Origin: Anaerolineae bacterium
Lineage (GTDB): Bacteria; Chloroflexota; Anaerolineae; B4-G1; DUEL01
NCBI GenBank assembly: GCA_036172315.1
Contig: JASFBC010000139.1
Coordinates: 1,728-65,727 of the forward strand
Reading direction: 5' to 3'
Length of the DNA: 64,000 nt
The notes beneath the pieces are model-generated. The model saw nothing but the letters and a program-made list of their open reading frames with translations, was not told the origin of the DNA and made no database searches. This document shows, piece after piece, positions 3,527-61,511 of this stretch; positions within the stretch are counted from its first letter, which is position 1; each line of letters begins with the position of its first letter. The position numbers and the translations under genes were made by a program.

Positions 3527-3529
3527 GCC

Positions 3530-4546: not shown

Positions 4547-4549
4547 CTT

Positions 4550-4703: not shown

Positions 4704-4720
4704 AGGAGGGTAAAGGCTAA

Positions 4721-24309: not shown

Positions 24310-25061
24310 GGTGACCTCCGGAGTGAAACGGGAAGAGTGAAACGTGAAACGGGAGCGTAGAATATCGGGATCGGGTCGCCCAGGACGGGTTGAGGGCGGC
24401 GAATCCACAGGTCCCACCAGGCCAGCCAGAGGGCCAGGACTTCGCGGGCCCAGTACTGGCGGATGTGGATGTAGGGGTGTCGGTCGGCCACGAAGCCAAC
24501 GGCGTCTATTCCCAGGCGCTTGCAGGTATAGAGAGCGCGCGGCAAGTGATAGCGCTGGGTGACAACCACCACCTCCCTCAGGCCGAAGATGGCCTTCGCC
24601 CGATAGCAGGTGTCATAGGTGCGCCGCCCGGCATAATCCAGGACGATGTCCTCCTCCGGCATTCCCAGCGTCCGGGCGACCTCCCGCATCTTCTCCGGCT
24701 CGTTGTAATTCACGAAGCGGTTATCGCCGCTGAAGAGGAGTTTGCGGACCCGCCCGGCCCGGTAGAGTTCCACCGCTGCCGTCACCCGGTCTCGCAGGAT
24801 GTCACTGGGCGTACCGTCGGGCCAGTAGCCAGCGCCGAAGACCAGCGCCACCGGGCGCTCCGGCACCGCCGCCGGGTCGGTGGAGATGAGCCTCCGGTAG
24901 CGCACGGTCAGCGTCCAGAGGGTCCAGCCCCCGACCGCGCCCAGGACAGAGAGGAGGACGCAGATGAACGCGGATAGACGCAGATGCCATCTGTATGTTT
25001 CTACGCTTCTCTGCCCAGGCCTACGTTCCTCCGGGTCCATCTTTTTTATTTTTCCTCCCAT
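23976..25061 (-). CDS. DUF218 (SanA/YdcF/ElyC family) membrane protein. Only the first ~237 aa look genuine; the C-terminal ~110 aa is low-complexity read-through overlapping the HD gene
   Basis: VFGAGYWPDGTPSDILRDRVTAAVELYRAGRVRKLLFSGDN is the DUF218 core. There is no in-frame stop until 23976. Confidence 0.6.
   Translation of the reverse strand: MGGKIKKMDPEERRPGQRSVETYRWHLRLSAFICVLLSVLGAVGGWTLWTLTVRYRRLISTDPAAVPERPVALVFGAGYWPDGTPSDILRDRVTAAVELYRAGRVRKLLFSGDNRFVNYNEPEKMREVARTLGMPEEDIVLDYAGRRTYDTCYRAKAIFGLREVVVVTQRYHLPRALYTCKRLGIDAVGFVADRHPYIHIRQYWAREVLALWLAWWDLWIRRPQPVLGDPIPIFYAPVSRFTLPVSLRRSPCNPPEKMPGNWSPSTSRTRTCSSICWPWRRPCGPMPAASGRTRRNGPWWGSSTTLTTSASLKTTRSPAPASCGSKAGLRRLSAPSSPMRPNGPAWSGRTGWSTPSTPWTT
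24322..24352 (-). promoter_or_regulatory. Three direct repeats of GTGAAAC(G) immediately upstream of the HD-domain gene SD
   Basis: Plus strand reads agtGAAACGggaagagtGAAACGtGAAACGgg. The position suggests an operator or activator site. Confidence 0.3.
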
Positions 25062-27230: not shown

Positions 27231-27241
27231 CGCACTCCCTT

Positions 27242-27332
27242 CCTCACCCCACCCCCGCTGCCTTCGGCGGCACCCTCTCCCCTCTCCGGAACTTTGTTCA
27301 GGTGAGGGAGGGGGCAGGGGGGAGGGGTGAGG
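27242..27332 (-). repeat. ~90-nt two-hairpin element E1 (outer stem CCTCACCCCACCCC/GGGGAGGGGTGAGG, a UUC-loop hairpin, and a 14-bp hairpin); a second copy lies at 57879-57970
   Basis: ~85% identical to 57879-57970, with compensatory changes in the small hairpin (gctgcc-ttc-ggcggc vs ggccc-ttc-gggcc). Sits between the O-antigen-ligase gene stop and the rph ATG. Confidence 0.7.
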
Positions 27333-27336
27333 AGCC

Positions 27337-30300
27337 CTACGGTGTGACAGGAACGGAGGGCTGAAGTTGCCCGATCAGTTGCTCTATGGCCGGCTTCTGC
27401 TCCTCCGGCGCCATCTGGAGCGCCGTCTGGGCTTCCGCCAGCGCCATCTCCAGGAGCCCCTTCTGGTAATAGGCGATCGCCAGCAGCCGGTGGGCATCCC
27501 AGGCCCAGGAGCCGGTGGGATCCAGTTCCAGCGAGCGGCCCAGCGCTTCCACCGCCAGGTCGTCCTGCCCCTGCTGCAGATACACCCGCGCCAGCGCATT
27601 CCAGACCTGGGGCATAGCGGGCACAATTTCCAGAGCCTTCCGATACGCCTCTGCCGCCCCTACCAGGTCCCCTTTCATCGCCCGGGCATCCCCAACGATG
27701 AGCCAGGTCTGCTCAAAGCCATCGTCCACTGCCAGAGAGCGGTTGATACACTCCCAGAATCTCTCCTCGTCCCTCAAACTGTAAAAATAGAGAGTAGCCC
27801 ACTGGTTCCAGAGGATGGGGTTATTGGGGCTCAGCGACGTGGCGGCCTCGTAATAGCGGGAGGCCAGGTTCAGAAGCGTCTCCCGCTGGGCCTGCCCGGC
27901 GGGAAGGTCGGCCCAGCGCTGGTACATCCGGGCCAGGTTGGCCGAATGGTCGGTGTTGAGCGGGCTCAGCGCCTGGGCCTGCAGGAGCACCCGTTCCGTC
28001 TCCCGCAGAATCGCCTCCTGCTGGGTTGTGTCGGTGGTGACAGTCGCCGCCTCCAGCAGCGCGCGGCCTAGATAGAGGTAATAGAAATCCTCGTGGGGGG
28101 CCAGTTGGACCGCCCGCTGGTAGTGGGGGACGGCCGCTCCCCACTGTCCGCTCCGGTCCCATGGGTCGGCCTGCTTGTAGATGATATCAGCGCGGATGGG
28201 GCGCAGGTTGGCCTGCACCGCGCCGAATGCCGCCAGCGGGAGCAGGACCGCCAGCGCCACCGGCCCCCAGGCTGTCCCCCACTTTTTGGGTATCCACCGC
28301 TCCCCCGCCAGCGCCAGCCCGCCCAGGAAAATCACCACGGCCAGAAAGCCGTAATAGGCCCCGATCTGCCCGGCGATGTACTCTGCCAGGCGCAGCAGGT
28401 CGTTGACGTTCTGGACCCTCATCCGCAGCACAGCAGCATGGCGCCCTGCCAGCAGCAGGCCAAAGGTCATCCCTACCGTCAGGGATACCAGGAGGACGAT
28501 CAGGGCTGCCAGCCACAAATCCCCCCGCCGCTGTCCGAATACCCCCCGGTGGGCCATCTGGGTGACGGTCAGGAGGGTAGTCATCGCCCAGGCCATACCG
28601 AAGACCAGGAGGATGCCCAGGGACTGGCGGGGCGGGCCGCCGATGGCGATGACTGTCAGCGAGCGCCAGAAAATCTGCGCGGGGTTGCTCAGCCGCTCCA
28701 CGTTGTTGACGAAGTCATAGGCCAGGGTGCCCAGGATGAGGGCGCCGATGAGGGCAGAGCCCAGCGCGGGCCAGAGCCAGGCGGGGACAGCGGAAGACGG
28801 CGCGGGTGGAGGAGTCGCCGGCCGGCGCCGCCGTTTCCTTCCCTTTGACTTGGGGGACGGCACCGTCTGCGGCGCGGCGGGTCGCTCCTCCCGCTCCGTA
28901 ATGGCCTGAGTGCCCAGGAGGACAAAAACCGCCGCTAGGGTCCAGAAGGTGGTCCGGGTGGACGCAATGGCGATGCCGAAGTTAATCTCCACCAGATGGG
29001 CCACAAAGGCAGCCAGAATGCCGATGAGCAGAATCTGGTGGGGATGGGCCGCTGGGAGGGACTCCGGGGAGAAGAAACCACAGATGACCAGATAAGCCAG
29101 CATTCCCAGGACCATCCCCACCGGAACCGCCAGCCCGAAAAAGTGAGGGCCGACAGTGGGGATGACGGCCGCGACAGCGGCCAATGCGCCCGTCACCAGC
29201 AAGCCGAAAAACAGCCGCCGCCGGGATGGGTCCGGAATCCACCCCAGCCAGGAGAGGCCATAGTAAAAGAGACTGCCGAAGAGCCAGAGGTACGCCGCAA
29301 ACCCCACCAATCCCGTGATGACCAGCGAGTCCAGCGTCTCGTTGTGAGAACGGTCCGGTGAGGCCGTGCGAGACTCGTAATGGCCCAGGAGGGGCGGGTA
29401 AAAACGGTTATAGGCCACATACATGGACTCCGGGCCGTAGCCGACCAGTGGGCGGATGAGATTGAAGGGATCGGGGTGACCGGTGGGGTCGGCGGTGGTG
29501 GCGGGATACTGAATAGGTTGGTGGGGCAGGACCAGGCGCCGGGCCCCCTCCCAGATGAGGGAGCGGACCTTGCCGGTGCCGGTCTCCGCCTGGAGGACGT
29601 CGTCCAGCCGGCCCATCCAGGGTTGCTCCTGGGCCCAGGCGTGGACGGGCTCGGCCAGGTTGACCGTGAGGAAGCCGGCGGCGAAGAGGAGGACAGTGAC
29701 CAGCGCGGCCGCCCACAGCCAGCGCCACCCCCGCCCGTTCACGATGAAGGCTAGCCAGGAGCCGGCGATGACCAGCAGGGCGCCCACAGCCGGTGCCCAC
29801 TGCAGGGATGGGTTTGCCTGCGCGGCGCCGCGCAGGGCCAGATAGAGCCCGGCACCCACTATCCCGGCCCCGACGATGCTCCCCAGTCCGAAAGTGATAC
29901 CAGCCTGAACATCCTCCAGAAGGTCCGTTGGATGAGGGACTTCCCGCAGAGCGGCGCGCCGCAGCGCCAGCAGTCCCAGGAACGCCCAGACGGCCAGCCC
30001 CATCACCAGCCCCATCAGCGGCCCCCGGCTGTGAGTGTACCAGATGCTGATGACCTGGACCAGGAAGATGAAAATATAGGCGGCCGCCCGCAGGACTTCG
30101 GAAATCCCGGCCTTCTCGTCCGTCAGAAGGGAGCGGAAGGCGTCCACCGCGCGCCCCAGCGTGGGGAATGCGGCCATAATCATATACGCGGCGACGAAAA
30201 TGGGGTTGCCCATATTGGAAGCCACCCGCTGGGTCACGTCGCCGCCCCAGGGAAGGGGGTCCCGGCGGGCGTGCTGGACGAATCCGTAAAGGGCGATGGG

Positions 30301-30747: not shown

Positions 30748-31709
30748 CTATCTTCCTCGGGCATCGCCTCTACCAGTTCGCCGTAGGAGAAAATGATATG
30801 AAAGCCCAGGGCCTGGATTCGCTCCTGTACCTCCGGCCGGGCCCGGTAGCAGAAGCAGACGGGAAAGATTTCTCCCTCCAGGTTGCGGCGGGCTATTTCC
30901 ACCGTTCGGGCGAACTTTTCCACTTCCCGCATCGTCAGATTGTGTTTGGCCTCCCCCACAATCCAGATGCGCCGTTCCGGTTGGGCCGGGTCGCGGGCCT
31001 CGCCGAAGATGTTGACCTCCCGCTTCTGGCCATCCCACCGCTGCCAGACCCGCTTCAGTTCTCCCACCTGCCAGCCCTTTTTCTGGCCGAGGACCCGGTG
31101 GATCACGATGTAGGCGATGTCTTCTATATCTCCACCAACGGTTTCGCTGAGTCCACCGACCTGGTGGGCCAGTCTATCCACTTTTCGCTCGGTGCGGGCC
31201 TGGGCCGCCGCCAGTTCCTCAATCCGCGCCTCGGTGCGGGCTTGAGCCCTGGCCAGTTCCTCAACCCGCGCCTCCGTCCGGGCCTGGGCCTCCGCCAGCC
31301 GGTCCAGCGCGGCTTCTATGCGGGCAAAGCGGGCCTCCGAAGCCTCCCGGTATTTCCGGAATTCCTCCTCGGTGCGGGCCTGGGCCTCCGCCAATTCTCG
31401 GACCTGCGCTTCGGTGCGGGCCTGGGCCTCGGCCAGCCGGTCCAGCGCCGCTTCTATGCGGGCAAAGCGGGCCTCCGAAGCCTCCCGGTATTTCCGGAAT
31501 TCCTCCTCGGTGCGGCCCTGGGCCTCGGCCAGTTCCTGGATGCTCTCTTTGAGGTCCTGGACGTCCTCGCGGGTGGCAAACTCCCCCCGAATCTGCCCCG
31601 CGATCAGACCGAGAGTATCGGCCAGGATTTCAGCCTGAGGCTCATCAAACGCGTTGAGAAAACGCCGAAAGAGCAGAGAGCGTTCCAAGTTCGTGATCGA
31701 GATACTCAT
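30744..31709 (-). CDS. Coiled-coil protein with a C-terminal PD-(D/E)xK nuclease-like domain (DUF3782-like), containing an internal 46-aa tandem repeat
   Basis: Start MSISITNLERS with an AGGAGG SD. EEFRKYREASEARFARIEAALDRLAEAQARTEA occurs twice (a 138-bp direct nucleotide repeat at ~31288-31563). The C-terminus has IWIVGEAK (ExK) and E..IFGEARD. Confidence 0.6.
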   Translation of the reverse strand: MSISITNLERSLLFRRFLNAFDEPQAEILADTLGLIAGQIRGEFATREDVQDLKESIQELAEAQGRTEEEFRKYREASEARFARIEAALDRLAEAQARTEAQVRELAEAQARTEEEFRKYREASEARFARIEAALDRLAEAQARTEARVEELARAQARTEARIEELAAAQARTERKVDRLAHQVGGLSETVGGDIEDIAYIVIHRVLGQKKGWQVGELKRVWQRWDGQKREVNIFGEARDPAQPERRIWIVGEAKHNLTMREVEKFARTVEIARRNLEGEIFPVCFCYRARPEVQERIQALGFHIIFSYGELVEAMPEEDR

Positions 31710-36647: not shown

Positions 36648-36782
36648 ACTCGTTCCCTGTGGGGTAAATTGTAGCACAGAACTCCATCCCCGCAAGATGC
36701 CACTTGCGCCCCCGCCGAATCCCGATACAATATGAATGACGGACGACAGACCACAGGCCACAGGCGACAGTTCGGAGGGAAC

Positions 36783-43478: not shown

Positions 43479-44459
43479 CTATCGCTTCCGCAGGCGGGGG
43501 TTGACCACTTCGTCCAGGGCACGTCCAACCAGGTAGAAAGCGGCACAGAGAAGGGTGATGGAGAGGCCCGCCGGGACAATCAGCCACCAGGTCTTAGTGT
43601 TCAAGAGATACCCGGCCGTCTGGGCCGTATGGATCATCAACCCCCAGGACATGCGGATGTTCAGCAGGCCGAAGAAAGAAAGGGCCGCCTCGGAGAAAAT
43701 GGCCGAGGTCACCGTGAACATCATGTACAGGAAGGAAAGGGGCAGCAGGTTGGGGATGATGTGGTGGCGGATGATATGCCAGTGGCTCCCGCCCGCCACC
43801 CGGGCGGCCTCAATGTACGTGCGCACTTTGATGGTCAGGGCCTGGGATTTGATGATGATGGTCGTCCCGCCGAAGCCGGAGAGGATGCCGATGACCAGCG
43901 CCAGTTTGGGCAGGTCCAGTTTAAAGAGCGCACCGAGGACGATGAGAATGGTGACGAAGGGGAGCATAATGATGAGGTCTGCCAGGCGCATAAAGAAAGT
44001 GTCTATAGGCCCGCCGAAGTAGGCAGAGAGGGCGCCGATAGTAGTGCCGATGGTGACGGTAATCAGCGCGGCCACCAACCCCAGGATGAACTCCGACCGG
44101 GCGCTGAACATCAACTGGCTGAGCACATCCCGCCCCAGGGGATCGGTGCCCAGGAGATGGCGGGAAGAGGGTGGGGCTGGCTGCATCGTCTCCTCGTAGG
44201 CGTAGCCCACCACCGGATCATAAACCGTCGGATCCCAGACGTACTTCATCAGGATCGGATGGGCAATGGCCAGCAGGGCGAAGAAGATGATGATGGCCAG
44301 GCCGATCAGCCCAATGCGGTTTTCGGCGAACAGGCGCCAGTTGGTGCGCAGAGAGCGCAGGAAGAGGCGCAGACGGATTTTCCAGAGCGGTTGCTGCCGC
44401 AGCCGCTCCCGCTCTTCCGGAGAGAGAAACTCATCCAAATGTCGTCGGGGCTCCTGCAT
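43479..44459 (-). CDS. Oligopeptide ABC transporter permease (OppC/DppC family)
   Basis: N-terminal cytoplasmic region plus a 6-TM permease domain (RHLLGTDPLGRDVLSQL). Confidence 0.82.
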   Translation of the reverse strand: MQEPRRHLDEFLSPEERERLRQQPLWKIRLRLFLRSLRTNWRLFAENRIGLIGLAIIIFFALLAIAHPILMKYVWDPTVYDPVVGYAYEETMQPAPPSSRHLLGTDPLGRDVLSQLMFSARSEFILGLVAALITVTIGTTIGALSAYFGGPIDTFFMRLADLIIMLPFVTILIVLGALFKLDLPKLALVIGILSGFGGTTIIIKSQALTIKVRTYIEAARVAGGSHWHIIRHHIIPNLLPLSFLYMMFTVTSAIFSEAALSFFGLLNIRMSWGLMIHTAQTAGYLLNTKTWWLIVPAGLSITLLCAAFYLVGRALDEVVNPRLRKR

Positions 44460-44474: not shown

Positions 44475-45626
44475 TCAGCCGTACCGGATGCGGGGATCCA
44501 GGTAGGCGTAGAGAATATCGGCGACCAGATGGGCCAGAAGGGCCAGAGTGCCGGTGAAGACCAGCCCACCCATCACCATGGGGATGTCCTGAGAGAGGGC
44601 GGCCTCCAGCAGGGTCAGGCCCATTCCCGGCCAGGAGAAAATGGTCTCAGTGATGACGCCCCCGTCTATAGCGAAGGCCAGGCTGAAGACGAAAGAGGTC
44701 ACCACTGGAAGCATCGCGTTCCGGGCGGCGTGTTTATCCCGAATGCTCTTTTCGGGCAACCCTTTGGCCCGTGCTGCCATTATGTAATCTTCCCGCAGGG
44801 TCTCCAGCATGCTATTGCGGGTCAAGAGCATCGTCCCGGCAAAGGAGATGCAGGTGAGGGTGAAGACGGGAAGGACCAGGTGGTGGAGGATGTCCAGGAT
44901 GTAGCGAGTCAGGCCAGTGGGGACCCAGTAGGCGGCCAGGCCGCCCAGAACGACCAGAACTCCCAGCCACTGGACCGGCCGGCGGCGGTCGGGGCGCACA
45001 GCGCGGGTGGCCAGCAGCCAGAAGAACAGGATAAGCAGGTCGATAAAGGCCGTCAGTAGCATCCGCTGGAAGAGGACGGTGGCCTCAATGGGCGCTCCCC
45101 GCCAAAGGGTAGGTGTGATGAACTTGCCGATAGGGAAGAGTTTCAACGCGGCGGCGAAGATCCAGATCATCATCAGGCCAAACCAGGGGGTGAAGACGGT
45201 ATAGAGGGTCACACCGCCCACCGTCGCCACGTACTCCAGCGTTTTGCCCCGCTTCCAGGCCAGGATTTTGCCCGAGAAGAAGCCGATGGTGAATGAGACC
45301 ACCGTAGCGGTCAGGAAGAGAGTGAGAGTGCGTGGGGCCCGTTCAAAGATGATGTCAGCCACCTGACGGGGGTAATTTGAGAAGGAGATACCCAGATTCC
45401 CGCGCAGGAGAGAGCGCATATACCGGAAGTATCGCTCGTGGACCGGACGGTCCAGCCCGAAAGTGGCCTTCAAGGCCTCCCGCTGGGCCTGGGTCAGTTT
45501 GGGATTAGAGAGGAAAATCTGAGCGTAATCTCCTGGCTGCGCTTCCAATAGAAAGTAGGCCAGGGTGATAAAGATAAAAAAGGTAATCACGATCTGGACC
45601 AGGCGTCTCAGGACATATCGGCGCAT
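44475..45626 (-). CDS. Oligopeptide ABC transporter permease (OppB/DppB family)
   Basis: Start at MRRYVLRRLVQIVITFF with an AGGAG SD. EAA loop ARAKGLPEKSIRDKHAARNA. Confidence 0.82.
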   Translation of the reverse strand: MRRYVLRRLVQIVITFFIFITLAYFLLEAQPGDYAQIFLSNPKLTQAQREALKATFGLDRPVHERYFRYMRSLLRGNLGISFSNYPRQVADIIFERAPRTLTLFLTATVVSFTIGFFSGKILAWKRGKTLEYVATVGGVTLYTVFTPWFGLMMIWIFAAALKLFPIGKFITPTLWRGAPIEATVLFQRMLLTAFIDLLILFFWLLATRAVRPDRRRPVQWLGVLVVLGGLAAYWVPTGLTRYILDILHHLVLPVFTLTCISFAGTMLLTRNSMLETLREDYIMAARAKGLPEKSIRDKHAARNAMLPVVTSFVFSLAFAIDGGVITETIFSWPGMGLTLLEAALSQDIPMVMGGLVFTGTLALLAHLVADILYAYLDPRIRYG

Positions 45627-45643
45627 AGGGCTCCTTATGAGAA

Positions 45644-45714
45644 GGTGACGGTCACCCCCACGGTGACCGTCACCGGATTTTACAAGATGCGGGGCGGGCT
45701 GAGGCCCGCCCCGC
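45644..45714 (-). promoter_or_regulatory. Two copies of the palindrome GGTGACGGTCACC, followed by a GC hairpin GCGGGGCGGGC-tgag-GCCCGCCCCGC, between the SBP gene and the permease gene
   Basis: Perfect inverted repeats. The hairpin lies directly 3' of the SBP stop, consistent with an attenuator or terminator plus an operator-like palindrome. Confidence 0.4.
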
Positions 45715-45728
45715 ATTCCCTCCAGCCC

Positions 45729-47729
45729 TTATTTGATCACCACCGTAGCCGGCAGGCCCTGGACAAACTGGAGACCGCCCAGCGTGTCGGTGTAGGGGTA
45801 TTCCACCGCCGCAGCGCGGTAGGCCTCAATGATGCCCGTATCAAAGAGGACGATGTAGGGCAGTTCGTCGGCCAGAATCTTCTGAATCTGGTCGGCGATG
45901 GCCTTGCAGGACTCCAGCGTGTCGCAGGACTTGATCTGGTCGGCTAGGGCGTCAAACTCAGGGTTGGAATAGCCACCGGCGTTGTTGTCACCCAGGCCCG
46001 CGCGCTCGCTGTGGAAGAAGTCGCGCACGTAGTCGGGGAAGATGGAGAGGCTCCAGCCCAGGATCCATATGTCAAAGTTCTGCTCGTCAAAGACCTTGGT
46101 GACGATGATGTTGAAGCCGGTGAGGTTGGCCTTGACGGGGATCCCGAACTCGTTGAGCCACTGCTCAATCCAGATGGCGAAGGTGGAGCGCAGCGGGTCG
46201 TAGCCGGGGCTGGGAGCCAGAAGTTCCATTTCGGGCACCGGCTTGCCGTCCGGCATGATGAGCCGGCCGCCGGGGGTAACCTGGCGGTTACCCTTATCCC
46301 AGGCCGGCTTCTGGTCGTTCTCCCACTTGTAACCGGCCGCCTCCAGGATTTCAATGGCCTTGTTGACGCGCTCCTCGCGGGTCATCGGGGTGCCATCCTC
46401 CTTCAGACCCCACTTGGGCACGTCGTCGGTATACCAGAAGGCATTGCCCTTGGGGACGAAGGAGTAGAGCGGGAAGGCCACGCCCTGGAGGATGGTCTTG
46501 GTCACGAACTCCTTGTCAATGAGAACGGCCACAGCCTGACGGAAGGCCTTGTCGTTCATCGGCGGCTTGCGGCAGTTAAAGCCCAGATAGCGGAACCCGT
46601 TGGTGTTATTCTCAATGACGGCCAGGTTGGGGTCTTCCTCAATCTGGGCTTTCAGCCCCCGCTGCAGGCCCAGCGGGTTGAGGACGAAGTCAATCTCCCC
46701 CGCCTTCAGGGCCAGCACCGCCGCGTCCTGGGTGCCGTAGAGGGTGTAGATGGCCGAGGAAGCGAAGGGGCCAACCTCCCACTCTTTGTCCACGTCACCC
46801 GTGGGCTCGCCGTAGCCGACGAACTCGTAGACCCCCTCCTTGAACTCCTTGTAGGCGCCATTCTTGTACTCAATCACTTTGGCGCCCTTGAAGAAGTAGT
46901 TGGGGTTGGCCGTGTTCTCGGCGAAGGCACCGGTCTCCCACTTAGAGAAGAGGTAGGAACCGGCCAGCGGCTCGCCCTCGGGGACATGGCCGAAGAGGAT
47001 GTTCAGAGCCTCGGCCTTCTTCTCCTCGTAGGCTTTCTTCTCTTCCTCCGGGGCATCCGCTGCAGGCGGGGTCAGCGCGGCCACCGCGGCCTTGGCCTGC
47101 TCCACGATGGGCCCCCAGTAGGCTTTAGAGAGGATGGGCCCCTGGAGCGCGCCGTACTCGTGGACCGCCAGGCCCGGCTTCTGCTTGTAGACGAACTTGA
47201 CGGTGTAGTCGTCCACCGCCTCCACGTGGTCCAGGTAGTTGCGGTCAAAGATGGAGGCCCAGTTGCCGGGCAGTTCCAGTTCCAGCGCAGTGTTGGCGGT
47301 GAAGGCCACATCGTGGGCAGTGACGGGGTTGCCGTCGCTCCACATTATGCCCTTCTTCATCTTGACCACGCTGACCCAGAACTCCCCTTCCTGCTTCATG
47401 GGTTCGGGCATCCCGTCGGCAATGCCGGGGACGAACTGGAAGGTGCGGTCCGCCAGGCCGTAGAGGCTCACCCGCTGCGGGCCCAGAACGTAGGCGTTCC
47501 ACACTGTGGCCTGGGGCCCCAGGTAAGCCCAATAGTTGGTGGTGGTCAGGTCCGAGAAGATGCCCACCCGGTAGGGCTTGGCCGGCACCGGTGTGGGGGT
47601 TGGCGGCACCGGGGTCGGCGCCTCCGTCGGCTTGGGCGGAGGGGTCGTCGGGGTCGCTGTTGGCTTGCAGGCCGCCAGCAGAAGCCCCACGACCACCAGC
47701 AGCGTTATGGCTAACAGTTCGCGCTTCAT
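45729..47729 (-). CDS. ABC transporter substrate-binding lipoprotein, family 5 (OppA/DppA-like)
   Basis: Lipobox LLAAC. 667 aa with the SBP_bac_5 architecture. Start at MKRELLAITLL with an AGGAGGAG SD. Confidence 0.85.
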   Translation of the reverse strand: MKRELLAITLLVVVGLLLAACKPTATPTTPPPKPTEAPTPVPPTPTPVPAKPYRVGIFSDLTTTNYWAYLGPQATVWNAYVLGPQRVSLYGLADRTFQFVPGIADGMPEPMKQEGEFWVSVVKMKKGIMWSDGNPVTAHDVAFTANTALELELPGNWASIFDRNYLDHVEAVDDYTVKFVYKQKPGLAVHEYGALQGPILSKAYWGPIVEQAKAAVAALTPPAADAPEEEKKAYEEKKAEALNILFGHVPEGEPLAGSYLFSKWETGAFAENTANPNYFFKGAKVIEYKNGAYKEFKEGVYEFVGYGEPTGDVDKEWEVGPFASSAIYTLYGTQDAAVLALKAGEIDFVLNPLGLQRGLKAQIEEDPNLAVIENNTNGFRYLGFNCRKPPMNDKAFRQAVAVLIDKEFVTKTILQGVAFPLYSFVPKGNAFWYTDDVPKWGLKEDGTPMTREERVNKAIEILEAAGYKWENDQKPAWDKGNRQVTPGGRLIMPDGKPVPEMELLAPSPGYDPLRSTFAIWIEQWLNEFGIPVKANLTGFNIIVTKVFDEQNFDIWILGWSLSIFPDYVRDFFHSERAGLGDNNAGGYSNPEFDALADQIKSCDTLESCKAIADQIQKILADELPYIVLFDTGIIEAYRAAAVEYPYTDTLGGLQFVQGLPATVVIK

Positions 47730-47968
47730 CGTTTCTCCTCCTGGGTTGGTAAATGGTAGATTGGTGATCGGTAAATTGGTATGGGGTCGGGGGATGTATC
47801 CGTCTTCTCCTCCAGGCATCACCTCCTTTCGCACAGATGAGAACTGACACGCTCTATAAATAATACAGTTTGCGGGCCAAAAAGGTTCAAATCAGACCAC
47901 AGACGATGGACGACAATCGTCCGTGGTCCGAGGTCCGTCGTCAGTCGTCCGTGGTCCGTCGTCCGTGG

Positions 47969-49621
47969 TCAGTGATCGGTAGTCAGTGACCGGACCATAT
48001 ACGTTCCCTCCAGGCGGAAGCCGCGCGCCCGGTAGTAGGGGCGGGTGCCGACGGCAGCGATGACGGCCAGCCGCCGGTAGCCGGCCTCCCGGGCCATGTC
48101 CGCCGCCCGCTCCAGGAGACGGGTGCCCAAGCCCGTGTGCTGGGCCCGCCCATCCCGCCGCCGGCCCAACTCCAGCGCCGGACCGTAGACATGGAGTTCC
48201 CGCACCACGGCGCTCCCGCGCAGTTCTTCCAACTCCGGCTCCACCCGGGGGAAAGAGAGCCGCAGGAAGCCCGCCAGATGCCCGTCCGGAGTCTCGCCCG
48301 CCAGGAAGTGCTCCACCGTGGCGTCGGTCTCGTAGGAGGTGACGGTAAGGGCCAGGGACGACGGGTCCACCGGCCGGCCGCGCACCTCCCGGCAGCGGAT
48401 GCACCGACAGCGCAGGCCCTGGCGCATCATCTCCGCCCGCACCACCTCCCGCAGGTTGGAACGGGTCACCCCAGCGACGATGTTCGGGGCCGGGATGTCC
48501 CGCATCAGGCGGTTGAGCCGGACGTAGGGAGGGATGAGGGCTTTGCAGGCCACCAGTAGCCGGACCAGCGTCTCCTCGTCGTAGGGCCGGTACTTTCCTT
48601 CCCGCCAGAGGTCGTAGAGGTCGGTCTCCTCCAGGAGCAGACAGGGGTAGATTTTCAGTTCGTCGGGCCGCAGAGCGGGGTCCTCCCACAACCGCCGGAA
48701 GTCTTCCAGGTCCCGCTCCGGGGTGGCACCGTAGAGATCGGGCATCCAGTGGAGGAGGATTTTGAAGCCCGCCAGGCGGAGCCGCCGGACGGCAGCGCGG
48801 GTCTCAGCGACGGTGTGGCCGCGCCGGTTAAGGGCCAGAATCTCGTCGTTCAGGCTCTGGACGCCCAGTTGGACTTTGGTCACCCCCAGGGCGCGCAACC
48901 GGCGGACTTCATCCGGGGTAATGCAGTCGGGCCGGGTCTCCACCACCAGCCCGACGTTGCGGTGAGGGGCCGTCTCGTTGCGGGTCTGGGCCTCTACCAG
49001 GGTCGGGGACTCCTCTCCGTTCATCGCATCCAGGCAGCGGCGGACGAACCATTCCTGGTAGTCGGGGGAGTAGTCGGACCAGGTGCCGCCCAGGATGAGG
49101 AGTTCTACCTTGTCGGTGGGGTGGCCGATGTTCTCCAGCGCCTGGAGGCGGCCCGCCGTCTGGGCAAAGGGGTCGTAGCCGAAGCGGATGGCCCGCTGGA
49201 CCCCCGGCTCGTCGGGGAGGTAGGATTTGGGGGCATTGGGGACGGTCGGGCAGTAGAGGCAGCGGCCCCGGCATGGGTGCGGCGGGGTCAGGACGGAGAC
49301 GGGGGCGACGCCGGAGATGGTGCGGGTGGGCTTGCGGCTCAAGGCCTGCTCCAGGCGCGGGTCGGGCGTCAGTTCGCCCACGGCGCAGAGGCGGCGGTAG
49401 GCGCGCAGGAGTTGGTCGCGAGAATAGAGGCCACCGCCAGGGCGGGGGTATTGGCGGATGATGGCCTCTACCCGTCTGGGCGTCAGGTGCCCGGCAGAGG
49501 CCAGGGCGCGCACGCAGGCCGCGCCCTCGGGGGCAACCGCAAGGGTTGTCCCTACAACGGTGGCCGCCAGAGATGGCTGGTATCGTTCATCAGCACCAGG
49601 CGGTAGAATTTCCCATTCCAT
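47969..49621 (-). CDS. Elp3-like radical SAM / GNAT acetyltransferase (tRNA U34 carboxymethyl-modification enzyme homolog)
   Basis: Radical SAM motif CRGRCLYCP, SGVAPVSVLTPPHP, a central radical SAM core, and a C-terminal GNAT (RRLAVIAAVGTRPYYRARGFRLEGTYMVRSL). An alternative GTG start at ~49513 would avoid the 70-nt overlap with the upstream gene. Confidence 0.8.
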   Translation of the reverse strand: MEWEILPPGADERYQPSLAATVVGTTLAVAPEGAACVRALASAGHLTPRRVEAIIRQYPRPGGGLYSRDQLLRAYRRLCAVGELTPDPRLEQALSRKPTRTISGVAPVSVLTPPHPCRGRCLYCPTVPNAPKSYLPDEPGVQRAIRFGYDPFAQTAGRLQALENIGHPTDKVELLILGGTWSDYSPDYQEWFVRRCLDAMNGEESPTLVEAQTRNETAPHRNVGLVVETRPDCITPDEVRRLRALGVTKVQLGVQSLNDEILALNRRGHTVAETRAAVRRLRLAGFKILLHWMPDLYGATPERDLEDFRRLWEDPALRPDELKIYPCLLLEETDLYDLWREGKYRPYDEETLVRLLVACKALIPPYVRLNRLMRDIPAPNIVAGVTRSNLREVVRAEMMRQGLRCRCIRCREVRGRPVDPSSLALTVTSYETDATVEHFLAGETPDGHLAGFLRLSFPRVEPELEELRGSAVVRELHVYGPALELGRRRDGRAQHTGLGTRLLERAADMAREAGYRRLAVIAAVGTRPYYRARGFRLEGTYMVRSLTTDH

Positions 49622-50202: not shown

Positions 50203-51471
50203 TTACAGGTTTAGTGCGCTCAGTTGACTGGTCAGGTCCTGCGGCGTCGCCGCTTCTATCGGGATGTAACGCAGGCCGGGGTAGTAGGTCTGGAAAAATT
50301 GGGCCAGGTCACCGGGCCAGAGGTGCGGGTTGATAGCGATGACGGTGCGAACGTCCAGCGCGCCAATGCCGGCATCGTCGGCGCTCCCCCCGATGGTCCA
50401 GCGGTACCGGTCCCAGGCGCCGCTGGCGAGGATGGCCTCCACCCACTCCCGGCCCGCTCCCGGCGGCAGGAGAACGTAGGTGCGCGGGTACTGTTCCCGG
50501 GGCAGACCCAGAGGGACTTCCGGCTCCGGTCGGGCGTTCTCCCGGTTCCGGATGGAAATCATATGCTCCAGCAGGCGGGGGTACGCGTACTCATAACTGC
50601 AGTCCTCCCAGCCTGGAGATGGGCCAATTGTAAAGGGGCAGAAAGCCCAGTGGTAATAGTCCTTGCTGGCCTCCGCATCGTACCACGCCACCCGGCGGGC
50701 GACCTCTTCGGCGGAGAAGCCGGTATAGGGGCCTCCGGCTCCTACTGGATAGAATTCGCTGACCACCAGTGGCACTACCTCGCTGCGCATCTTCAGCAGG
50801 TGGTAGAGATAGCGGTAGCGGAAGCAGAGGGCGCCGGCCCCCTCCACCACCGGTGAGCCGGGAATCTGGTGGCCCCACCACTGGTCAATGGGCCAGTCGT
50901 AGAAGACGCCCTCGTGGAGGGTGAGGATGTGGCCGCCCTGGCGGGCGCGGCCGAAGACCCCCGTCTCCACCATAGCCTGCATCTCGGCCCACTCCGGTGT
51001 CCCGGCGTTGAAGGCGAAGATGCCCAGTTTCAGGCCGTGCCGTTCGGCCTTCTCCATGCAGAGAATCATCAATTGGGCCAGGCGGCGGTACCCCGCCACC
51101 CCGGGCGGGGCCGGTTCGTTGCAGACCTCCCAATAGTCCACCACGCGGCCGCCCTGCAGTTCGGGGCTGACGGCGATTTTGTTGAGGATCAATTGAACCA
51201 GCGAATCCGCGAGTTGGGCGAGGTCGGCGCCCATGATGTTGGGGGCGGCTTCTATGGCGGAAGTGAGCCGCCCAACAGTGATGACTTCGGGGGCTAACGC
51301 TTTCACTTCGGCCAGCGTACTCAAATTGTCCACGGCTTTAATGACGGGAAATCGGGCGCTGTTTTCCAGCAACTGCCGCAGGTAGGAGATGGTGGGACCC
51401 GAAGCGATGGTGTGCACGCCCAGTTTGCTGCCCCGTTCTACGAAGGGGTACGGCCAGGTTTCTCCGGACAT
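50203..51471 (-). CDS. Glycoside hydrolase-like protein (TIM-barrel, GH5-type NEP motif; family uncertain)
   Basis: WEVCNEP (acid/base) and VVSEFY (candidate nucleophile). 422 aa. AAGGAGG SD. Confidence 0.5.
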   Translation of the reverse strand: MSGETWPYPFVERGSKLGVHTIASGPTISYLRQLLENSARFPVIKAVDNLSTLAEVKALAPEVITVGRLTSAIEAAPNIMGADLAQLADSLVQLILNKIAVSPELQGGRVVDYWEVCNEPAPPGVAGYRRLAQLMILCMEKAERHGLKLGIFAFNAGTPEWAEMQAMVETGVFGRARQGGHILTLHEGVFYDWPIDQWWGHQIPGSPVVEGAGALCFRYRYLYHLLKMRSEVVPLVVSEFYPVGAGGPYTGFSAEEVARRVAWYDAEASKDYYHWAFCPFTIGPSPGWEDCSYEYAYPRLLEHMISIRNRENARPEPEVPLGLPREQYPRTYVLLPPGAGREWVEAILASGAWDRYRWTIGGSADDAGIGALDVRTVIAINPHLWPGDLAQFFQTYYPGLRYIPIEAATPQDLTSQLSALNL

Positions 51472-51637
51472 GGGGGGCCTCCTTACATCGGTATGCTGGT
51501 GATTGGTATACTGGTGATTGGTATATTGGTGATTGGTAGCATACTGGGGTTCGCCGCGCCTGGGGCAATTTTACCACAAAATGATGTATTTGCCACTCTG
51601 AGGATAGGTGGGTTGGGTTTTGCGGCTCAGGCGGGCC

Positions 51638-56144: not shown

Positions 56145-56300
56145 AAGCCTGTAACTCTTCAGCCCGATGGGTATCGCCCTCCTGCGCCGATTGGAAGTCG
56201 GCCTCCCTGCCACAAAGACCACAGACCATAGACCACAGACCACGACGGTGGTGGTCGGTGGTCCCTCGTCCATCCGGAAAGGACGACGCAGGCCGTCCAT
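56145..56300 (-). repeat. Dispersed intergenic repeat element, copy C (reverse orientation)
   Basis: The reverse complement reads ..ggacga..ccaccgtcgtggtctgtggtctatggtctgtggtctttgtggcaGGGAGGCCGACTTCCAATCGGCGCAGGAGGGCGATACCCATCGGGCTGAAGAGTTAC, matching copies A/B. Confidence 0.7.
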
Positions 56301-56960: not shown

Positions 56961-59225
56961 TTACTGAACCCGAATCCGGCTCAGGAGCAGGAAATTCTGG
57001 CCGTCCTCCAGCCGGAGACGTTCGCCGGTATCGGGCCGGTAAAGACCGATTTCCACCTCGTAGAAGCCCGGCGGCGTCTCCGGCTTCACCCGCAGCGTAT
57101 AGGTCTCCCGATATACCTCCCCGGCCCGCCACTGAGACGTGGGCGGGGTCGGCGGACGGTCCTCTTGCCCCCAGAGGGTCTGCGGCGGCTCCAGGATGTG
57201 GGTAAAGACGGTGTAATCGTGTTCTGTGGGGCCAAGGGCTCGCCAGTACAGGGCCAACACGACCGTATCGCCGGGCCGCACCCGCCGGGGGGCCAGTTCG
57301 TACCCCACCAGTTCTATCCGGTCGCCGAAACGGTAGGAGACGGGGTTGGGATAGGGGCCCGGCCGGGGCCGAAGCGCTATTTCTCCGAAAGAAACGTAGC
57401 GCTGGCTGTCAGCCTGCCCGGCAACTGGCATCCGCTCCCGGGTCCGCAGGTCGTAGAAGCCCATCATCAGCGAAAGGCGCGCCGGAGCCACAGCGGTCTC
57501 AGGCACCCGCAGGCGGAAGACCTCCGCCCAGCGTTCCCCGGCCCGCAGTTGGGTCGCCCGGACCAGCCCCTGGCGGGGGTAGCGGTCGTCCTGGGCCAGG
57601 ATGATCTCCAGGTCGTCCACCAAGTGGACGAAGAGGCTCCAGTCCCGCGTCGGGGGCCGGAGGGCCTCCAGATAGAGCGTCAGGTCTACAGTCTCCCCTG
57701 GCTCCAGCGAGGATGGACGGAGGTCATACCCCAGCAGGCGGAACTCGTCGCCGAAGGTTGCCTCCATGGGGTTGGGGACCTCCACCGGAACGGGCAGATC
57801 AGGGGGACGGTAGGCGGGGGCGATCCAGAGGGCCGGCGCCAGCAGGGCCAGGGTCCCCAGGAAGACGGCAGGAAGGAACCTCACCCCACCCCCGGCCCTT
57901 CGGGCCACCCCTCTCCCCTCTCCTGAACTTTGTTTAGGAGAGGGGAGAGGGGATAGGGAGGGGGGTGAGGAAAGCACCCGCGCCACCTGCTCCCAACCGA
58001 TCCACAGTCCCAGGGAGATGAGCCCGATGGCGGGGAACATCAGCCGCCCTTGGGAGGCGAGGGTCTGGGAGGTCCAACGCAGGAAGGCCGCGAGGAGCAC
58101 CGTCATATAGCCCAGGAGCCCCAATCCGACGGCCCACCTTTCCCCCCAGGCACGGGTGCGGACCGCGTGGGTCAGCCCCCGGCCCACCCGAGCCAGAAGC
58201 CCCAGGGTTGCCAGAGCGGTCCAGGCGTCCAGCACCCGGTATATCCACACTGGCATCAGGACGTTCATCCCCCCGAAGACGCCCCAGAAAGACCAGCGGA
58301 AGCCCTGGAATTCCCGTAGAAGGTCGGCGGGGGTGGCGGCTCGCCGCCCGACGATGTCCAGCATCACGGAGAGTCCAAAGGGGTCATGGTAGAGGGTCCA
58401 GTTGCGCCAGAACCACCAGCCACAGAGGGCCAGGGCGGTGGAAAACACTGCCAAAAGCGCCAGGCCCTTCTGGGAGGAGCGCGGGGCTTTGACCAGCAGA
58501 ACAACCAGCGCCAGAGGCCAAAGGGTCAGACCGCTCAGTTTGGCCAGCGCGGCCGTCCCGAGCACAACTCCCAGCAAGAGGGCGCGCGGCCAGGAGAATC
58601 CCCGCCGCCAGATGATGGCCAGCAACCAGAGCCCGGCGGCGGTGCCAGCGTTAACCAGGGTATCGTTGTTCACCGACGCAGCGATGAAGAGGAACATCGG
58701 GTTAACGGCAACCAGCAAGCCACTCCCCAGGGCCCAGCCTGGGTGGTCAGGAAAGAGGAGGCGCACCGTGCTCACTGTCGCCAGGACCGTCAGCAGGCCC
58801 AGTGATACCGAGACCAGCCGCCAGAGGTGGAGGGTGAGGATAGTGCCACGCCAGGGGAAGGCTTCGCCGGGGCCATGTAGCGCCTGATTCCGGTTGGCGA
58901 TGCGGGAGGTGTCGCCAGAGGAAGCATGGGGGTTTGGGAGGTAGACGACGTCCAGATCATCCAGGGGAAGGCGGAACAGGTGGGTGAACCCGGCCAGCAG
59001 GGCATAGTAGAGGGGGGGCTGACTGCCTTCCTGTCGCCAGGGCGTCTCCTCCCCGGGGTGCTGCACCGGGAGTCCCTCACCCCGCGTCAGCCGGCCCACC
59101 ATGCCGATGTGCCACCTTTCGTCGGAAGACTCAAAGAGGGGGTTGGCCGCGCTGTACAGGAGAGCCAAGGCCAGGTAGAGGAGCAGGAGAGGCATTCGCT
59201 GAAAAGAGAAGCGCTGATCGGACAT
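56961..59225 (-). CDS. GT-C fold glycosyltransferase (PMT/ArnT-like, GT39/GT83 type) with a C-terminal twice-repeated beta-rich domain. The ORF contains an in-frame copy of the ~90-nt repeat E2 and may be two genes
   Basis: N-terminal ESSDERWH (DE motif in loop 1) and more than 10 TM helices. Residues ~420-450 (SSPPSLSPLPSPKQSSGEGRGVARRAGGGVRF) are the translation of element E2. Downstream are a signal-peptide-like segment and a duplicated F.LLGYDL..G..V.L.LYW domain. Confidence 0.65.
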   Translation of the reverse strand: MSDQRFSFQRMPLLLLYLALALLYSAANPLFESSDERWHIGMVGRLTRGEGLPVQHPGEETPWRQEGSQPPLYYALLAGFTHLFRLPLDDLDVVYLPNPHASSGDTSRIANRNQALHGPGEAFPWRGTILTLHLWRLVSVSLGLLTVLATVSTVRLLFPDHPGWALGSGLLVAVNPMFLFIAASVNNDTLVNAGTAAGLWLLAIIWRRGFSWPRALLLGVVLGTAALAKLSGLTLWPLALVVLLVKAPRSSQKGLALLAVFSTALALCGWWFWRNWTLYHDPFGLSVMLDIVGRRAATPADLLREFQGFRWSFWGVFGGMNVLMPVWIYRVLDAWTALATLGLLARVGRGLTHAVRTRAWGERWAVGLGLLGYMTVLLAAFLRWTSQTLASQGRLMFPAIGLISLGLWIGWEQVARVLSSPPSLSPLPSPKQSSGEGRGVARRAGGGVRFLPAVFLGTLALLAPALWIAPAYRPPDLPVPVEVPNPMEATFGDEFRLLGYDLRPSSLEPGETVDLTLYLEALRPPTRDWSLFVHLVDDLEIILAQDDRYPRQGLVRATQLRAGERWAEVFRLRVPETAVAPARLSLMMGFYDLRTRERMPVAGQADSQRYVSFGEIALRPRPGPYPNPVSYRFGDRIELVGYELAPRRVRPGDTVVLALYWRALGPTEHDYTVFTHILEPPQTLWGQEDRPPTPPTSQWRAGEVYRETYTLRVKPETPPGFYEVEIGLYRPDTGERLRLEDGQNFLLLSRIRVQ
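57879..57970 (-). repeat. Second copy (E2) of the ~90-nt two-hairpin element, located in-frame inside the GT-C ORF
   Basis: ~85% identity to 27242-27332 with compensatory stem changes. Confidence 0.7.
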
Positions 59226-60495: not shown

Positions 60496-60586
60496 AAAAT
60501 CCATATTCATCTGCGTTTCATCTGCGTTTATCTGCGTCCTAAAAATCCATATTCATCTGCGTTTCATCTGCGTTTATCTGCGTCCT
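60496..60586 (-). repeat. Two tandem copies of a 45-bp AT-richer unit, each made of three 11-nt sub-repeats (gene-strand ACGCAGATRAA), in the GT2-GT4 intergenic leader
   Basis: aaaatccatattcatctgcgtttcatctgcgtttatctgcgtcct occurs twice. The 11-nt period suggests iteron or response-regulator-type sites. Confidence 0.7.
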
Positions 60587-61511
60587 ACTTCCGACTGACC
60601 ATCGCCCGCACCACTTGCCGGTAGGCGGCGATGCGCTCCGCCCGCAGGGCCCGCTTGTGGCCCAGAAGCCACTTGCCCCCTTCCAGCCCAATCTGCCAGA
60701 GATAGTTGCCCAGGAGGACCAGCCGCAGGAGCCCCGCCGCGACCGGGCCGTGGTACTTGCGGAAGTAGCGGACCTTGCTGGTCTGGAAGTGGATATGACG
60801 GGCCGGGAGGACCTGTTCGCTGCTCTTGCCCACATGGTGAATCACCCGTGCGGTGGGCAGATAGACGACTCGCCAGCCCGCCTCCCGGAACCTCCGACAC
60901 CAATCCAGTTCTTCCGAGTACATAAAGAAGCCCTCGTCCAGCGGCCCCACCTGTTCTATCGCCTCACCCCGGGCCATCAGCGCCGCGCCGGTCACCCAGT
61001 CCACGTCCTGAATCTCGTCATCCGGGCGGTCCAGGACGTAGTAGCGCGAGAGCAGACGACGGGGAGCGTAGGGCTGGAGCCAGGTGGACTCCAGGAGAGC
61101 CGTCGCCAAGGTGGGGAAGCGGCGGCGGGAGGATTGCACCGTCCCGTCGGGGTTCAGCAGTTGGGGGCCCACGATGCCGACATCGGGATGGGCATCGGCG
61201 AAGGCGACCATCGTCTCCAGAGCGTTGCCTATCACTTCGGTATCCGGGTTCAGCAGGAGGACATAGCGGCCCCGGGCAACGGCGAGTCCCTGGTTGTTGG
61301 CGGCAGGGAAACCCCGGTTATCGGTGTTGGCAATCAGGTGAACTTGAGGGAACTCCGTCCGGACCATCTCCCCGCTCCCGTCGGTGGAGCCATTATCCAC
61401 GACAATGATTTCCAGTGTGCAGGCGGGCGAGTTTGCGAGCAGGGACTGGAGGCAGCGCCGGAGAAGGTCCCGAACATTCCAGTTGACGATAAGAACGGAG
61501 AGGTCAACCAT
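60585..61511 (-). CDS. Glycosyltransferase family 2
   Basis: VLIVNWNVRDLL, VVDNGSTDGS and NRGFPAANNQG, paralogous to 15274-16176. Start at MVDLSV, 8 nt after the polyprenyl synthase stop. Confidence 0.85.
   Translation of the reverse strand: MVDLSVLIVNWNVRDLLRRCLQSLLANSPACTLEIIVVDNGSTDGSGEMVRTEFPQVHLIANTDNRGFPAANNQGLAVARGRYVLLLNPDTEVIGNALETMVAFADAHPDVGIVGPQLLNPDGTVQSSRRRFPTLATALLESTWLQPYAPRRLLSRYYVLDRPDDEIQDVDWVTGAALMARGEAIEQVGPLDEGFFMYSEELDWCRRFREAGWRVVYLPTARVIHHVGKSSEQVLPARHIHFQTSKVRYFRKYHGPVAAGLLRLVLLGNYLWQIGLEGGKWLLGHKRALRAERIAAYRQVVRAMVSRK

Follow-up and report, generated by a model that had tools for sequence, protein, structure and literature searches.

A heptamer class is reportedly recognised among the long simple-sequence repeats (LSSRs) of prokaryotes (Huang & Mrazek 2014; Mrazek et al. 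2007). Heptameric simple-sequence repeats (SSRs) are over-represented in many bacteria and have been ascribed to slippage, according to the account of Mrazek 2007 given in PMC4679880 and PMC4692102. Described examples include the GGGAATC repeats of Xanthomonas and the GGGGAYT repeats of Nostoc (PMC4692102), and Chloroflexus aurantiacus carries (GATAGRA)n satellites (PMC6749651). The short tandemly repeated repetitive (STRR) sequences of cyanobacteria are built from 7-bp repeats that often form hairpins; their function is unexplained, and roles in transcript stability or translational coupling have been suggested (PMC2670836). TAACTGA repeats are found in marine Beggiatoaceae, some Cyanobacteria and Bacteroidetes, in a report that makes no mention of Chloroflexi, ACCAAT or STRR (MacGregor 2015, PMC4679880). 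Here, we examine a tandem array of 7- to 8-nt units with an ACCAAT core that lies directly upstream of the gene for an oligopeptide-binding substrate-binding protein (SBP) in a 64,000-nt stretch of an Anaerolineae genome (hereafter the window; assembly GCA_036172315.1, contig JASFBC010000139.1, positions 1,728 to 65,727). We conclude that the array is probably an STRR-like heptamer slippage repeat of the LSSR type, situated in an inferred 5' untranslated region (UTR) and retained as an orientation-filtered passive spacer, not as a gene-specific regulator site.

A first-pass annotation, made from the sequence without database searches, had transcribed the leader exactly: from 47783 to 47727 on the minus strand, it reads CA-TACCAAT-T-TACCGAT-CACCAAT-C-TACCATT-TACCAAC-CC-AGGAGGAG-AAACG-ATG. 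The five tandem YACCAAT units that it described are present, but only one is an exact TACCAAT and the other four are degenerate. Likewise, the extent it had assigned, 47746-47800, is correct for the repeat at 47746-47783, whereas 47784-47800 is non-repeat sequence. Tandem Repeats Finder (TRF) reports the array at period 7 with 4.8 copies, 73% matches, 13% indels, and a score of 37. The weakness of this score results from the spacing of the ACC cores, which stand at offsets 3, 11, 18, 26, and 33 and thus alternate 8/7/8/7, with a super-period of ~15 nt. The corresponding pattern, ACC-N5-ACC-N4-ACC-N5-ACC-N4-ACC, matches the window twice, solely at the SBP leader and at a sister array near 51.5 kb, with 0.00 matches expected from 100 dinucleotide-preserving shuffles; the earlier judgment that the repeats are unlikely by chance is therefore sound. 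Adjacent units in the SBP-leader array are never identical to each other. The array is non-coding, located between the stop codon of an upstream radical-SAM/GNAT gene (47969) and the SBP ATG (47729), and spans about -54 to -17 relative to that ATG. G is scarce on its sense strand (1 G in 36 nt), and the RNA is predicted to stay unfolded, with a minimum free energy (MFE) of 0 kcal/mol.

A related array had been noted at 51487-51550, in front of a gene thought to be glycoside-hydrolase-like. The array is real, occupying 51490-51541 and sharing the ~15-nt super-period, and it is near-perfect only at that 15-nt period (x3.3). It adjoins a Shine-Dalgarno (SD) sequence, AAGGAGG (51478-51484), with the ATG at 51471, so that both ACCAAT arrays of the window stop 16-18 nt short of a start codon. 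The MFE of its RNA is -1.7 kcal/mol, and a conserved -10-like TGTGGTAAAAT (51568-51577) lies upstream. The functional label given to the gene was not borne out, as the 422-aa product (50203-51471, minus strand) has no Pfam or NCBIfam match even at E<=0.1. The gene is syntenic in every relative examined (L010, L140, L141, and L152; L numbers designate the loci compared). The orthologous leaders in L010, L140/L141, and L152 retain the -10-like TGTGGTAAAAT and the SD but lack the sister array; in its place, L010 has unrelated sequence, L140 a different repeat, and L152 just a short UTR. On this comparison, the 51.5-kb array is a recent gain.

The two ACCAAT arrays belong to a larger population of heptamer repeats in their host, a Thermoflexales-like member of the Chloroflexota with ~64% GC; the closest loci in GTDB genomes are those of Anaerolineae/Thermoflexales metagenome-assembled genomes (MAGs), at 94-97% amino-acid identity. 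Our array census of this genome covers the 64-kb window. An ungapped self-match test with a threshold of at least 20 of 28 positions yielded nine period-7 arrays, compared with ~0.1 in local shuffles, and TRF found 13. The same test returned zero arrays in the window at periods 4, 5, 8, 10, 11, and 13; beyond period 7, a self-match signal arose only at the multiples of 3 that mark coding sequence. Unit types identified by TRF include GGACGAC, GTCTGTG, GTGAAAC, GGGAGGG, AGACCAC, GGAGAGG, and GCAGGGG. These arrays fall into three kinds. One consists of (GGACSAC)n followed by inverted (GTGGTCT/GTCGTCC)n, forming predicted hairpins of -43.5 and -45.7 kcal/mol (z -4.1 to -4.2); another comprises G-rich/C-rich palindromes; and the ACCAAT type, within the window, has no inverted partner and no structure. 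Four arrays with differing units (24321-24351, 36737-36770, 47746-47783, and 51490-51541) stop 11-18 nt short of an ATG and directly adjoin an SD, and the genes that follow are unrelated, encoding an HD-domain protein, a FAD/Fe-S oxidoreductase, the SBP, and the unknown protein at 51.5 kb. Since differing units also abut SDs, TACCAAT is not a unique recognition sequence.

The ACCAAT unit type is widespread. A metagenome scan with ACCAATNNACCNATNACCANTNNACC recovered at least 120 ACCAAT-core stretches with 8/7 spacing, of which only a handful are estimated to be chance matches; the counts given below for downstream genes apply among the matches listed. The contigs concerned range from 27 to 68% GC, and their arrays are up to 160 nt long. 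Included among them is an (ACCAATG)n variant, whose unit is obtained by reverse-complementing and rotating TTGGTCA, reportedly the STRR2 unit of Mazel et al. 1990. When proximity was defined as a long open reading frame (ORF) beginning -6 to +60 nt downstream of the array, such a start was found on the ACCAAT strand in 50 of 114 cases, as opposed to 15 of 98 for the mirror arrangement (Fisher p=6e-6). Distances from sense arrays to starts cluster at 0-7 nt, which leaves no SD, and at 12-22 nt, which leaves room for one. The orientation bias is confined to gene starts (45 versus 17), with none at gene ends (31/91 versus 44/114) by a crude stop-to-stop ORF calling that is noisy but symmetric. 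The bias relative to gene starts speaks for a constraint acting on the RNA. A G-poor sense strand proved not to be general among heptamer arrays next to starts, judging by the non-ACCAAT arrays in the same 1.17 Mb (11/24).

Thus, with respect to whether the SBP leader stands alone, the array type recurs at many other gene starts. The further idea that these arrays mark a set of secreted or uptake proteins did not hold: the proteins encoded after 49 ACCAAT arrays represent 65 Pfam families, with at most three per family, and only 7 of 50 have a signal-peptide-like N-terminus. Ribosomal protein S4, thymidine kinase, NuoB, SecD, and a Bacteroidetes-type GldD are among them. Two loci with identical flanks, L047 and L132, have arrays that differ by exactly one 15-nt double unit.

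Turnover by whole units is also evident among close relatives of the window. Their DNA was obtained by homolog search and cluster look-up, with several lineages in the cluster at >=90% identity. An ACC-core, G-poor array is kept at the SBP leader in six related lineages, and its unit number is variable. L152/L153 retain a decayed remnant of ~3 units; L140 has ~4; L157 has five, one 8-nt unit more than L140 between like flanks; five are likewise present in the window and in L001/L154/L155; and L150 carries eight, owing to a 22-nt, 3-unit insertion. L010 was left out of the SBP-leader comparison, as its contig jumps from the end of the GNAT gene into SBP residue 246. Across four lineages, the proportion of invariant positions is 87% in a promoter-like block, 95% in an SD-like block (TGCGAAAGGAGGTGATGCC), and 89% (16/18) from the SD to the ATG. 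By contrast, it is 51% in the ACCAAT array and 54% at four-fold degenerate sites of the adjacent SBP gene, from which it follows that substitutions accumulate in the array, taken as a whole, at a roughly neutral rate; the spacer on its 5' side stands at 11%. Those array positions that are invariant in the four lineages concentrate in the TACC cores and their phasing, a pattern that could reflect selection, homogenisation by slippage, or the freedom of an aligner within repeats. A second array, upstream of the SBP promoter-like block, is hypervariable in unit type and copy number and differs in every relative: L001 has (GACSACN)10 and then an in-phase (GCGATNN)10, L140 has (GCGATAC)~14, and L152 has a G/C-rich palindrome. 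Ten contigs, each from a different sample and chosen because they encode an identical SBP, have the same ACCAAT array, and the upstream GACSAC array differs in one.

We propose that these arrays arise, grow, shrink, and decay by replication slippage, which would add or remove one unit (7-8 nt) or one double unit (15 nt) per step. Selection would act on orientation, such that mainly the ACCAAU-sense strand, which is G-poor and unfoldable, is tolerated beside a ribosome-binding site (RBS). With the opposite strand, AUUGGUGAU, SD-like GGUGAU motifs and GUG and UUG start codons would come to lie shortly before the authentic start. An array in the tolerated orientation would most likely have the passive role of a single-stranded spacer, or of a segment on which the 30S subunit can land, 5' of the SD, and its effect on expression would be quantitative at most. 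At the SBP locus, a conserved promoter-like block precedes the array. The repeats are thus probably part of the 5' UTR, with a transcription start site expected upstream of them, and their position between this block and the SD suggests that any role is probably exerted at the RNA or translation level. The elements expected of a structured cis-regulatory RNA were not found there: Rfam at gathering thresholds over the whole window gave no match, the entire SBP leader is less foldable than its shuffles (z=+1.54), and the array itself does not fold.

Several results weigh against a purely passive spacer. The (T)ACC cores and a strong depletion of G persist in six lineages, with 2-6 G per 40 nt as compared with 7-12 in ordinary leaders, and the persistence of the array in all six could mean that selection favors more than tolerance. 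As for leaders of this lineage in general, a look for G-depletion upstream of the SD gave only a weak C>G bias (30/46, from a noisy home-made start predictor). The tight clustering of distances at 0-7 and 12-22 nt across phyla exceeds what a pure tolerance filter obviously predicts. Finally, in a partition-function model comparing native leaders with deleted, reverse-complemented, shuffled, and random arrays, accessibility of the SD and start was not raised by the array. For the SBP leader, accessibility was 0.43 for the native sequence, 0.47 with random replacement, and 0.59 with the array deleted; for the 51-kb leader, it was 0.54 as against 0.47, and 27% of random sequences did as well. This negative outcome means that we claim no enhancement. 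The idea that the array brings a significant benefit by simply unmasking the SD is not supported by this modelling.

A more active role at the RNA level is possible but doubtful. Under this explanation, the ACCAAU repeats would be the binding platform of a conserved factor that recognises single-stranded RNA, be it ribosomal protein S1, a cold-shock-domain protein, or another factor. This factor would engage one unit per 7-8 nt and would enhance or regulate translation initiation at many unrelated genes. The SBP-leader array occupies what we take to be the mRNA region contacted by S1, about -54 to -17. Cold-shock domains cover ~6-7 nt and were first described as binding single strands of the CCAAT/ATTGG (Y-box) type. 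Sense orientation and close proximity to the start or SD recur in organisms of 27-68% GC, the invariant array positions in four lineages are the (T)ACC cores and their phasing, and G-depletion is extreme in all six lineages. A like pattern, with like candidates, has been put forward for the TAACTGA repeats (PMC4679880), and the scheme would amount to a post-transcriptional network of the sort suggested for them. Yet the array, taken overall, accumulates substitutions at the neutral rate, three close relatives lack the sister array and have nothing that would compensate for it, SDs in the host genome are also abutted by unrelated units, and the conservation of the cores may be an artefact of repeat alignment or of slippage homogenisation. 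A broader version, in which the ACCAAT arrays and the cyanobacterial TTGGTCA STRRs, perhaps along with the TAACTGA repeats, form one cross-phylum 5'-UTR class read unit by unit by S1 or a cold-shock-domain protein, seems to us unlikely. In that joint scheme, members of the class in Chloroflexota, Bacteroidota, Cyanobacteria, and others would enhance or regulate translation, either as auxiliary elements or independently of an SD, and we assign this function the same low likelihood. If it were true, it would supply a function for heptamer repeats that have been unexplained since ~1990, and a reason for the preference for a 7-nt unit.

The remaining explanations are weaker. Unit number could set the length of the 5' UTR and thereby tune SBP expression as a contingency (phase-variable or rheostat) locus, an arrangement suggested by the differing unit numbers among lineages (about 3, 4, 5, 5, and 8), by the otherwise identical metagenome loci with a 15-nt indel, and by the precedent of the heptamer SSR of Haemophilus influenzae hmw1A/hmw2A as outlined in PMC12721329 and PMC8262952. 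We consider it improbable, as degenerate units of which adjacent ones are never identical would suppress high-frequency slippage, the arrays are identical in ten contigs of the same SBP allele from ten samples, and an apparently environmental member of the Chloroflexota has no obvious need to phase-vary peptide uptake. Direct repeats by a gene start are also the classic architecture of a DNA operator, and an array so far beyond chance might comprise tandem half-sites for a transcription factor of the SBP operon. Such a role is highly improbable given that ~75 nt separate the conserved promoter-like block from the array downstream of it, that the array directly adjoins the SD, and that similar arrays precede functionally unrelated genes in many phyla. 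In addition, the strand bias relative to the gene points to a constraint on RNA and not on duplex DNA. The first-pass annotation had suggested a binding platform for a regulator or RNA-binding protein, or a translational enhancer. A dedicated regulator site falters, like the operator, on the neutral rate, the varying unit number, and the absence of the sister array in three relatives, and also on the other unit types found against SDs. Known regulators that bind direct repeats phase at the 10-11 bp helical turn, which a 7.5-bp array period does not fit.

A coding role has the least to recommend it and strikes us as scarcely credible. Translation from an ATG inside GAAAGGAGGTGATG (47819) might run through the repeats and give either a leader peptide or an SBP with a longer N-terminus; in the window, this ATG is in frame with the SBP and preceded by a perfect SD, and a 701-aa ORF begins at 47834. 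The frame is not conserved, being out of register in L001 and closed by a stop after 12 codons in L140, and the SD lies just 2 nt from the ATG. Furthermore, a canonical lipoprotein signal such as MKRELLAITLLVVVGLLLAAC has to stand at the N-terminus, and this one has its own conserved SD. The comparative data effectively refute this reading. We retain the orientation-filtered slippage repeat as the probable explanation.

The genes and signals around the SBP leader are collected in Table 1, together with the arrays discussed above. The identification of an oligopeptide-binding lipoprotein gene was upheld by a Pfam match to SBP_bac_5 (E=6e-46) and a lipoprotein-type N-terminus, MKRELLAITLLVVVGLLLAAC; an exact-sequence lookup of the window's SBP protein returned no record. 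Two permease genes follow (44475-45716 and 43479-44459). On the minus strand, the order from 5' to 3' is the stop codon at 47969, the hairpin array, the promoter-like block, TGCGAAAGGAGGTGATGCC, a variable spacer, the ACCAAT array, the SD, and the ATG. A consensus promoter scan with 16-18-nt spacers missed TTGAAC-19-TATTAT because its spacer exceeds 18 nt, and we call it promoter-like on the grounds of its conservation. The TGCGAAAGGAGGTGATGCC block is unique within the window, and the ATG inside it opens no frame-conserved ORF. Its GAAAGGAGGTGAT segment is fully complementary to what we take to be the 3' tail of the 16S rRNA, and this invariant segment resembles a 5' stabiliser, by analogy with the STAB-SD of Bacillus thuringiensis cry3A, an upstream SD whose bound 30S subunit stands in the way of RNase J1 (PMC4113751).

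Table 1. Heptamer arrays, genes, and conserved leader elements in the window (positions are those of the 64,000-nt stretch)
Feature	Position	Strand	Evidence or remark
ACCAAT-core tandem array, five degenerate units, 8/7-nt spacing	47746..47783	-	sequence, TRF, core-pattern count
Sister ACCAAT array (ACCAATC-ACCARYAT)x3.5	51490..51541	-	TRF period 15, 3.3 copies, 94% matches
Heptamer array (GTTTCAC)n on the sense strand, unrelated to ACCAAT	24321..24351	-	ends 11 nt before the ATG of the HD-domain gene, abuts SD CGGAGG
Heptamer array (GACRGAC/CACAGGC)n, unrelated to ACCAAT	36737..36770	+	ends 12 nt before the ATG of the FAD/Fe-S oxidoreductase gene, abuts SD GGAGGG
Second heptamer array (GGACSAC)x8 plus inverted partial array (GTCGTCC/GTGGTCT), long hairpin	47893..47974	-	TRF 47917-47974; folding
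Opp/Dpp-type substrate-binding lipoprotein gene, 666 aa, first of ABC-transporter operon	45729..47729	-	Pfam; gene order in relatives
Shine-Dalgarno AGGAGGAG of the SBP gene	47735..47742	-	5 nt before the ATG (47729-47727), 3 nt after the array
Invariant SD-like block TGCGAAAGGAGGTGATGCC, ~90 nt upstream of the SBP start	47815..47833	-	18/19 invariant, four lineages
Promoter-like block TTGAAC-(19 nt)-TATTAT	47860..47890	-	26/30 invariant, four lineages
Upstream radical-SAM + GNAT (ELP3-like) gene	47969..49621	-	Pfam Radical_SAM, Radical_SAM_C, Acetyltransf_1

The (GGACSAC)x8 array overlaps the stop codon of the upstream radical-SAM/GNAT gene, and the hairpin that it forms with its inverted partner (-43.5 kcal/mol, z=-4.2) was matched in stability by 0 of 200 shuffles. 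Hairpins of paired arrays at 47893-47974, 4545-4650, and 56200-56300 have energies of -43 to -46 kcal/mol, with z of about -4 for the first two and -1.9 for the third. Those at 47893-47974 and 4545-4650 directly follow a stop codon and precede the promoter or leader of the next gene, and paired-array hairpins may act as terminators, insulators, or 3'-end stabilisers. Rfam at E<=1 on 4500-4800 gave no match. A repeat of ~60 nt, AGGGAGGCCGAyTTCCcATCGGCGC.A..AGGGyGAy..CCATCrGGC.GA.A..GTTAC, occurs three times (4636-4700 and 9740-9800 on the plus strand, 56215-56150 on the minus strand), each copy directly 3' of a (GGACGAC)n/(GTGGTCT)n hairpin array; it has no Rfam match and is absent from the 151 other loci compared. 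Two copies of a G-rich/C-rich palindrome, CTCACCCCACCCCC...CCCCTCTCCCCTCTCC-TGAACTTTGTTyAGG-GGAGAGGGGAGAGGGG..., are present in the window (27240-27338 and 57880-57972), and in L152 a similar palindrome (~5770-5850) takes the place of the heptamer hairpin that precedes the SBP promoter. This palindromic element looks like a repetitive extragenic palindromic (REP) sequence. Elsewhere in the window, an intergenic segment at 60496-60587 is a perfect 46-nt x2 tandem duplication built from the 11-mer TTCATCTGCGT x7, and 31188-31535 holds a 138-nt x2.2 tandem repeat with a 42-nt sub-period (89% identity by TRF), apparently within a minus-strand coding region.

ACCAAT arrays in other genomes display further arrangements. 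A more distant Anaerolineae MAG, L016, contains two opposite-strand ACCAAT arrays 15 nt apart (3420-3620), so this unit type also occurs in a hairpin configuration; on the minus strand, a hairpin resembling a terminator (AACCCCCTT...AAGGGGGTTTTCTTTT) stands between this inverted pair and a 406-aa gene. In one group of contigs of ~50% GC, a conserved element of ~50 nt, ...GGGGTGTAACCAGCAGTTGACACAGATTTTTGAACACTCCC, lies near the 5' end of the array at ~9 loci (L045, L062, L064, L069, L090, L095, L102, and L138); it directly adjoins most of these arrays, with a distance of 20-40 nt to the array in L069 and L090. The element includes a perfect TTGACA, and together with the array, it looks like a dispersed promoter-plus-array module.

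For the SBP locus, these results are deflationary: the repeats are neither an operator nor a riboregulator for the uptake of peptides, and annotations should not present them as either. They extend the heptamer-repeat phenomenon to a Thermoflexales-like lineage of the Chloroflexota and reveal that one unit type, an ACCAAT core with 8/7 spacing, recurs in very different genomes with a strong orientation bias specific to gene starts. This bias offers a handle on whether STRR-like repeats do anything. If the repeats matter, inverting them or scrambling them with composition kept should alter translation; if they are merely tolerated, nothing should change. The arrays are also practical hot spots of assembly breaks and over-extended gene calls. 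Gaps of N fall inside the arrays of L154 and L155, a likely mis-join coincides with a heptamer array in L010 (9976-10001), and the gene call at 3110-4954 of L140 makes the radical-SAM gene 614 aa long by extending it through arrays.

One of the systems with which these arrays can be compared is the omega leader of tobacco mosaic virus (TMV). It contains ACAAUUAC x3 and (CAA)n, is G-poor and CA-rich, and acts as an SD-independent translational enhancer in a viral and eukaryotic setting. As an analogy only, it shares with the ACCAAT arrays a G-depleted, unstructured RNA with direct repeats of 7-8 nt just 5' of the initiation region; the ACCAAU arrays bring no modelled gain in accessibility. A literature search for a bacterial source on the analogy between TMV omega and S1 yielded nothing usable. 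Among the bacterial repeats, the LSSRs likewise feature an over-represented, intergenic heptamer, variation in length and sequence at the same locus between close relatives, and a proposed origin by slippage. The LSSR families named above are G-rich and prone to G4 formation, or purine-rich, whereas the ACCAAT arrays are G-poor on the mRNA strand, free of structure, and biased in orientation toward start codons. The cyanobacterial STRRs share tandem 7-nt intergenic units, many arrays per genome in several unit families, and, in some arrays, inverted copies that form hairpins (here at 47893-47974 and 4545-4650). Unlike them, the array described here resides in a Chloroflexota host of ~64% GC and is short, degenerate, spaced 8/7, and set against a strong canonical SD. 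At hmw1A/hmw2A of H. influenzae, as presented in PMC12721329 and PMC8262952, a heptamer repeat also lies between promoter and start codon and changes copy number by slippage, the process to which we ascribe variation in the ACCAAT arrays. Those repeats are perfect, numerous, and phase-variable, whereas the array at the SBP leader is degenerate and identical across ten samples.

The closest behavioral match is provided by the TAACTGA repeats (PMC4679880). They too are direct, overwhelmingly intergenic heptamers in a "forward" orientation that end between 1 nt and a few nt from a start codon or SD, precede unrelated genes, have a patchy distribution across phyla, and undergo unit-step indels, which for TAACTGA are 7-nt differences between strains. 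They diverge in that the core here is (T)ACCAAT and a canonical SD follows, while most of the BOGUAY repeats replace the RBS (PMC4679880). The TAACTGA repeats are thus analogous and not the same family. The SBP-leader array has the properties of the heptamer class, namely units of ~7 nt placed head to tail in at least three copies, a non-coding location, dispersal, and variation in unit steps. Taken together, the ACCAAT arrays fit the heptamer-SSR class and behave like its TAACTGA type, from which they differ in their unit, host phylum, 8/7 alternation, and the SD that follows.

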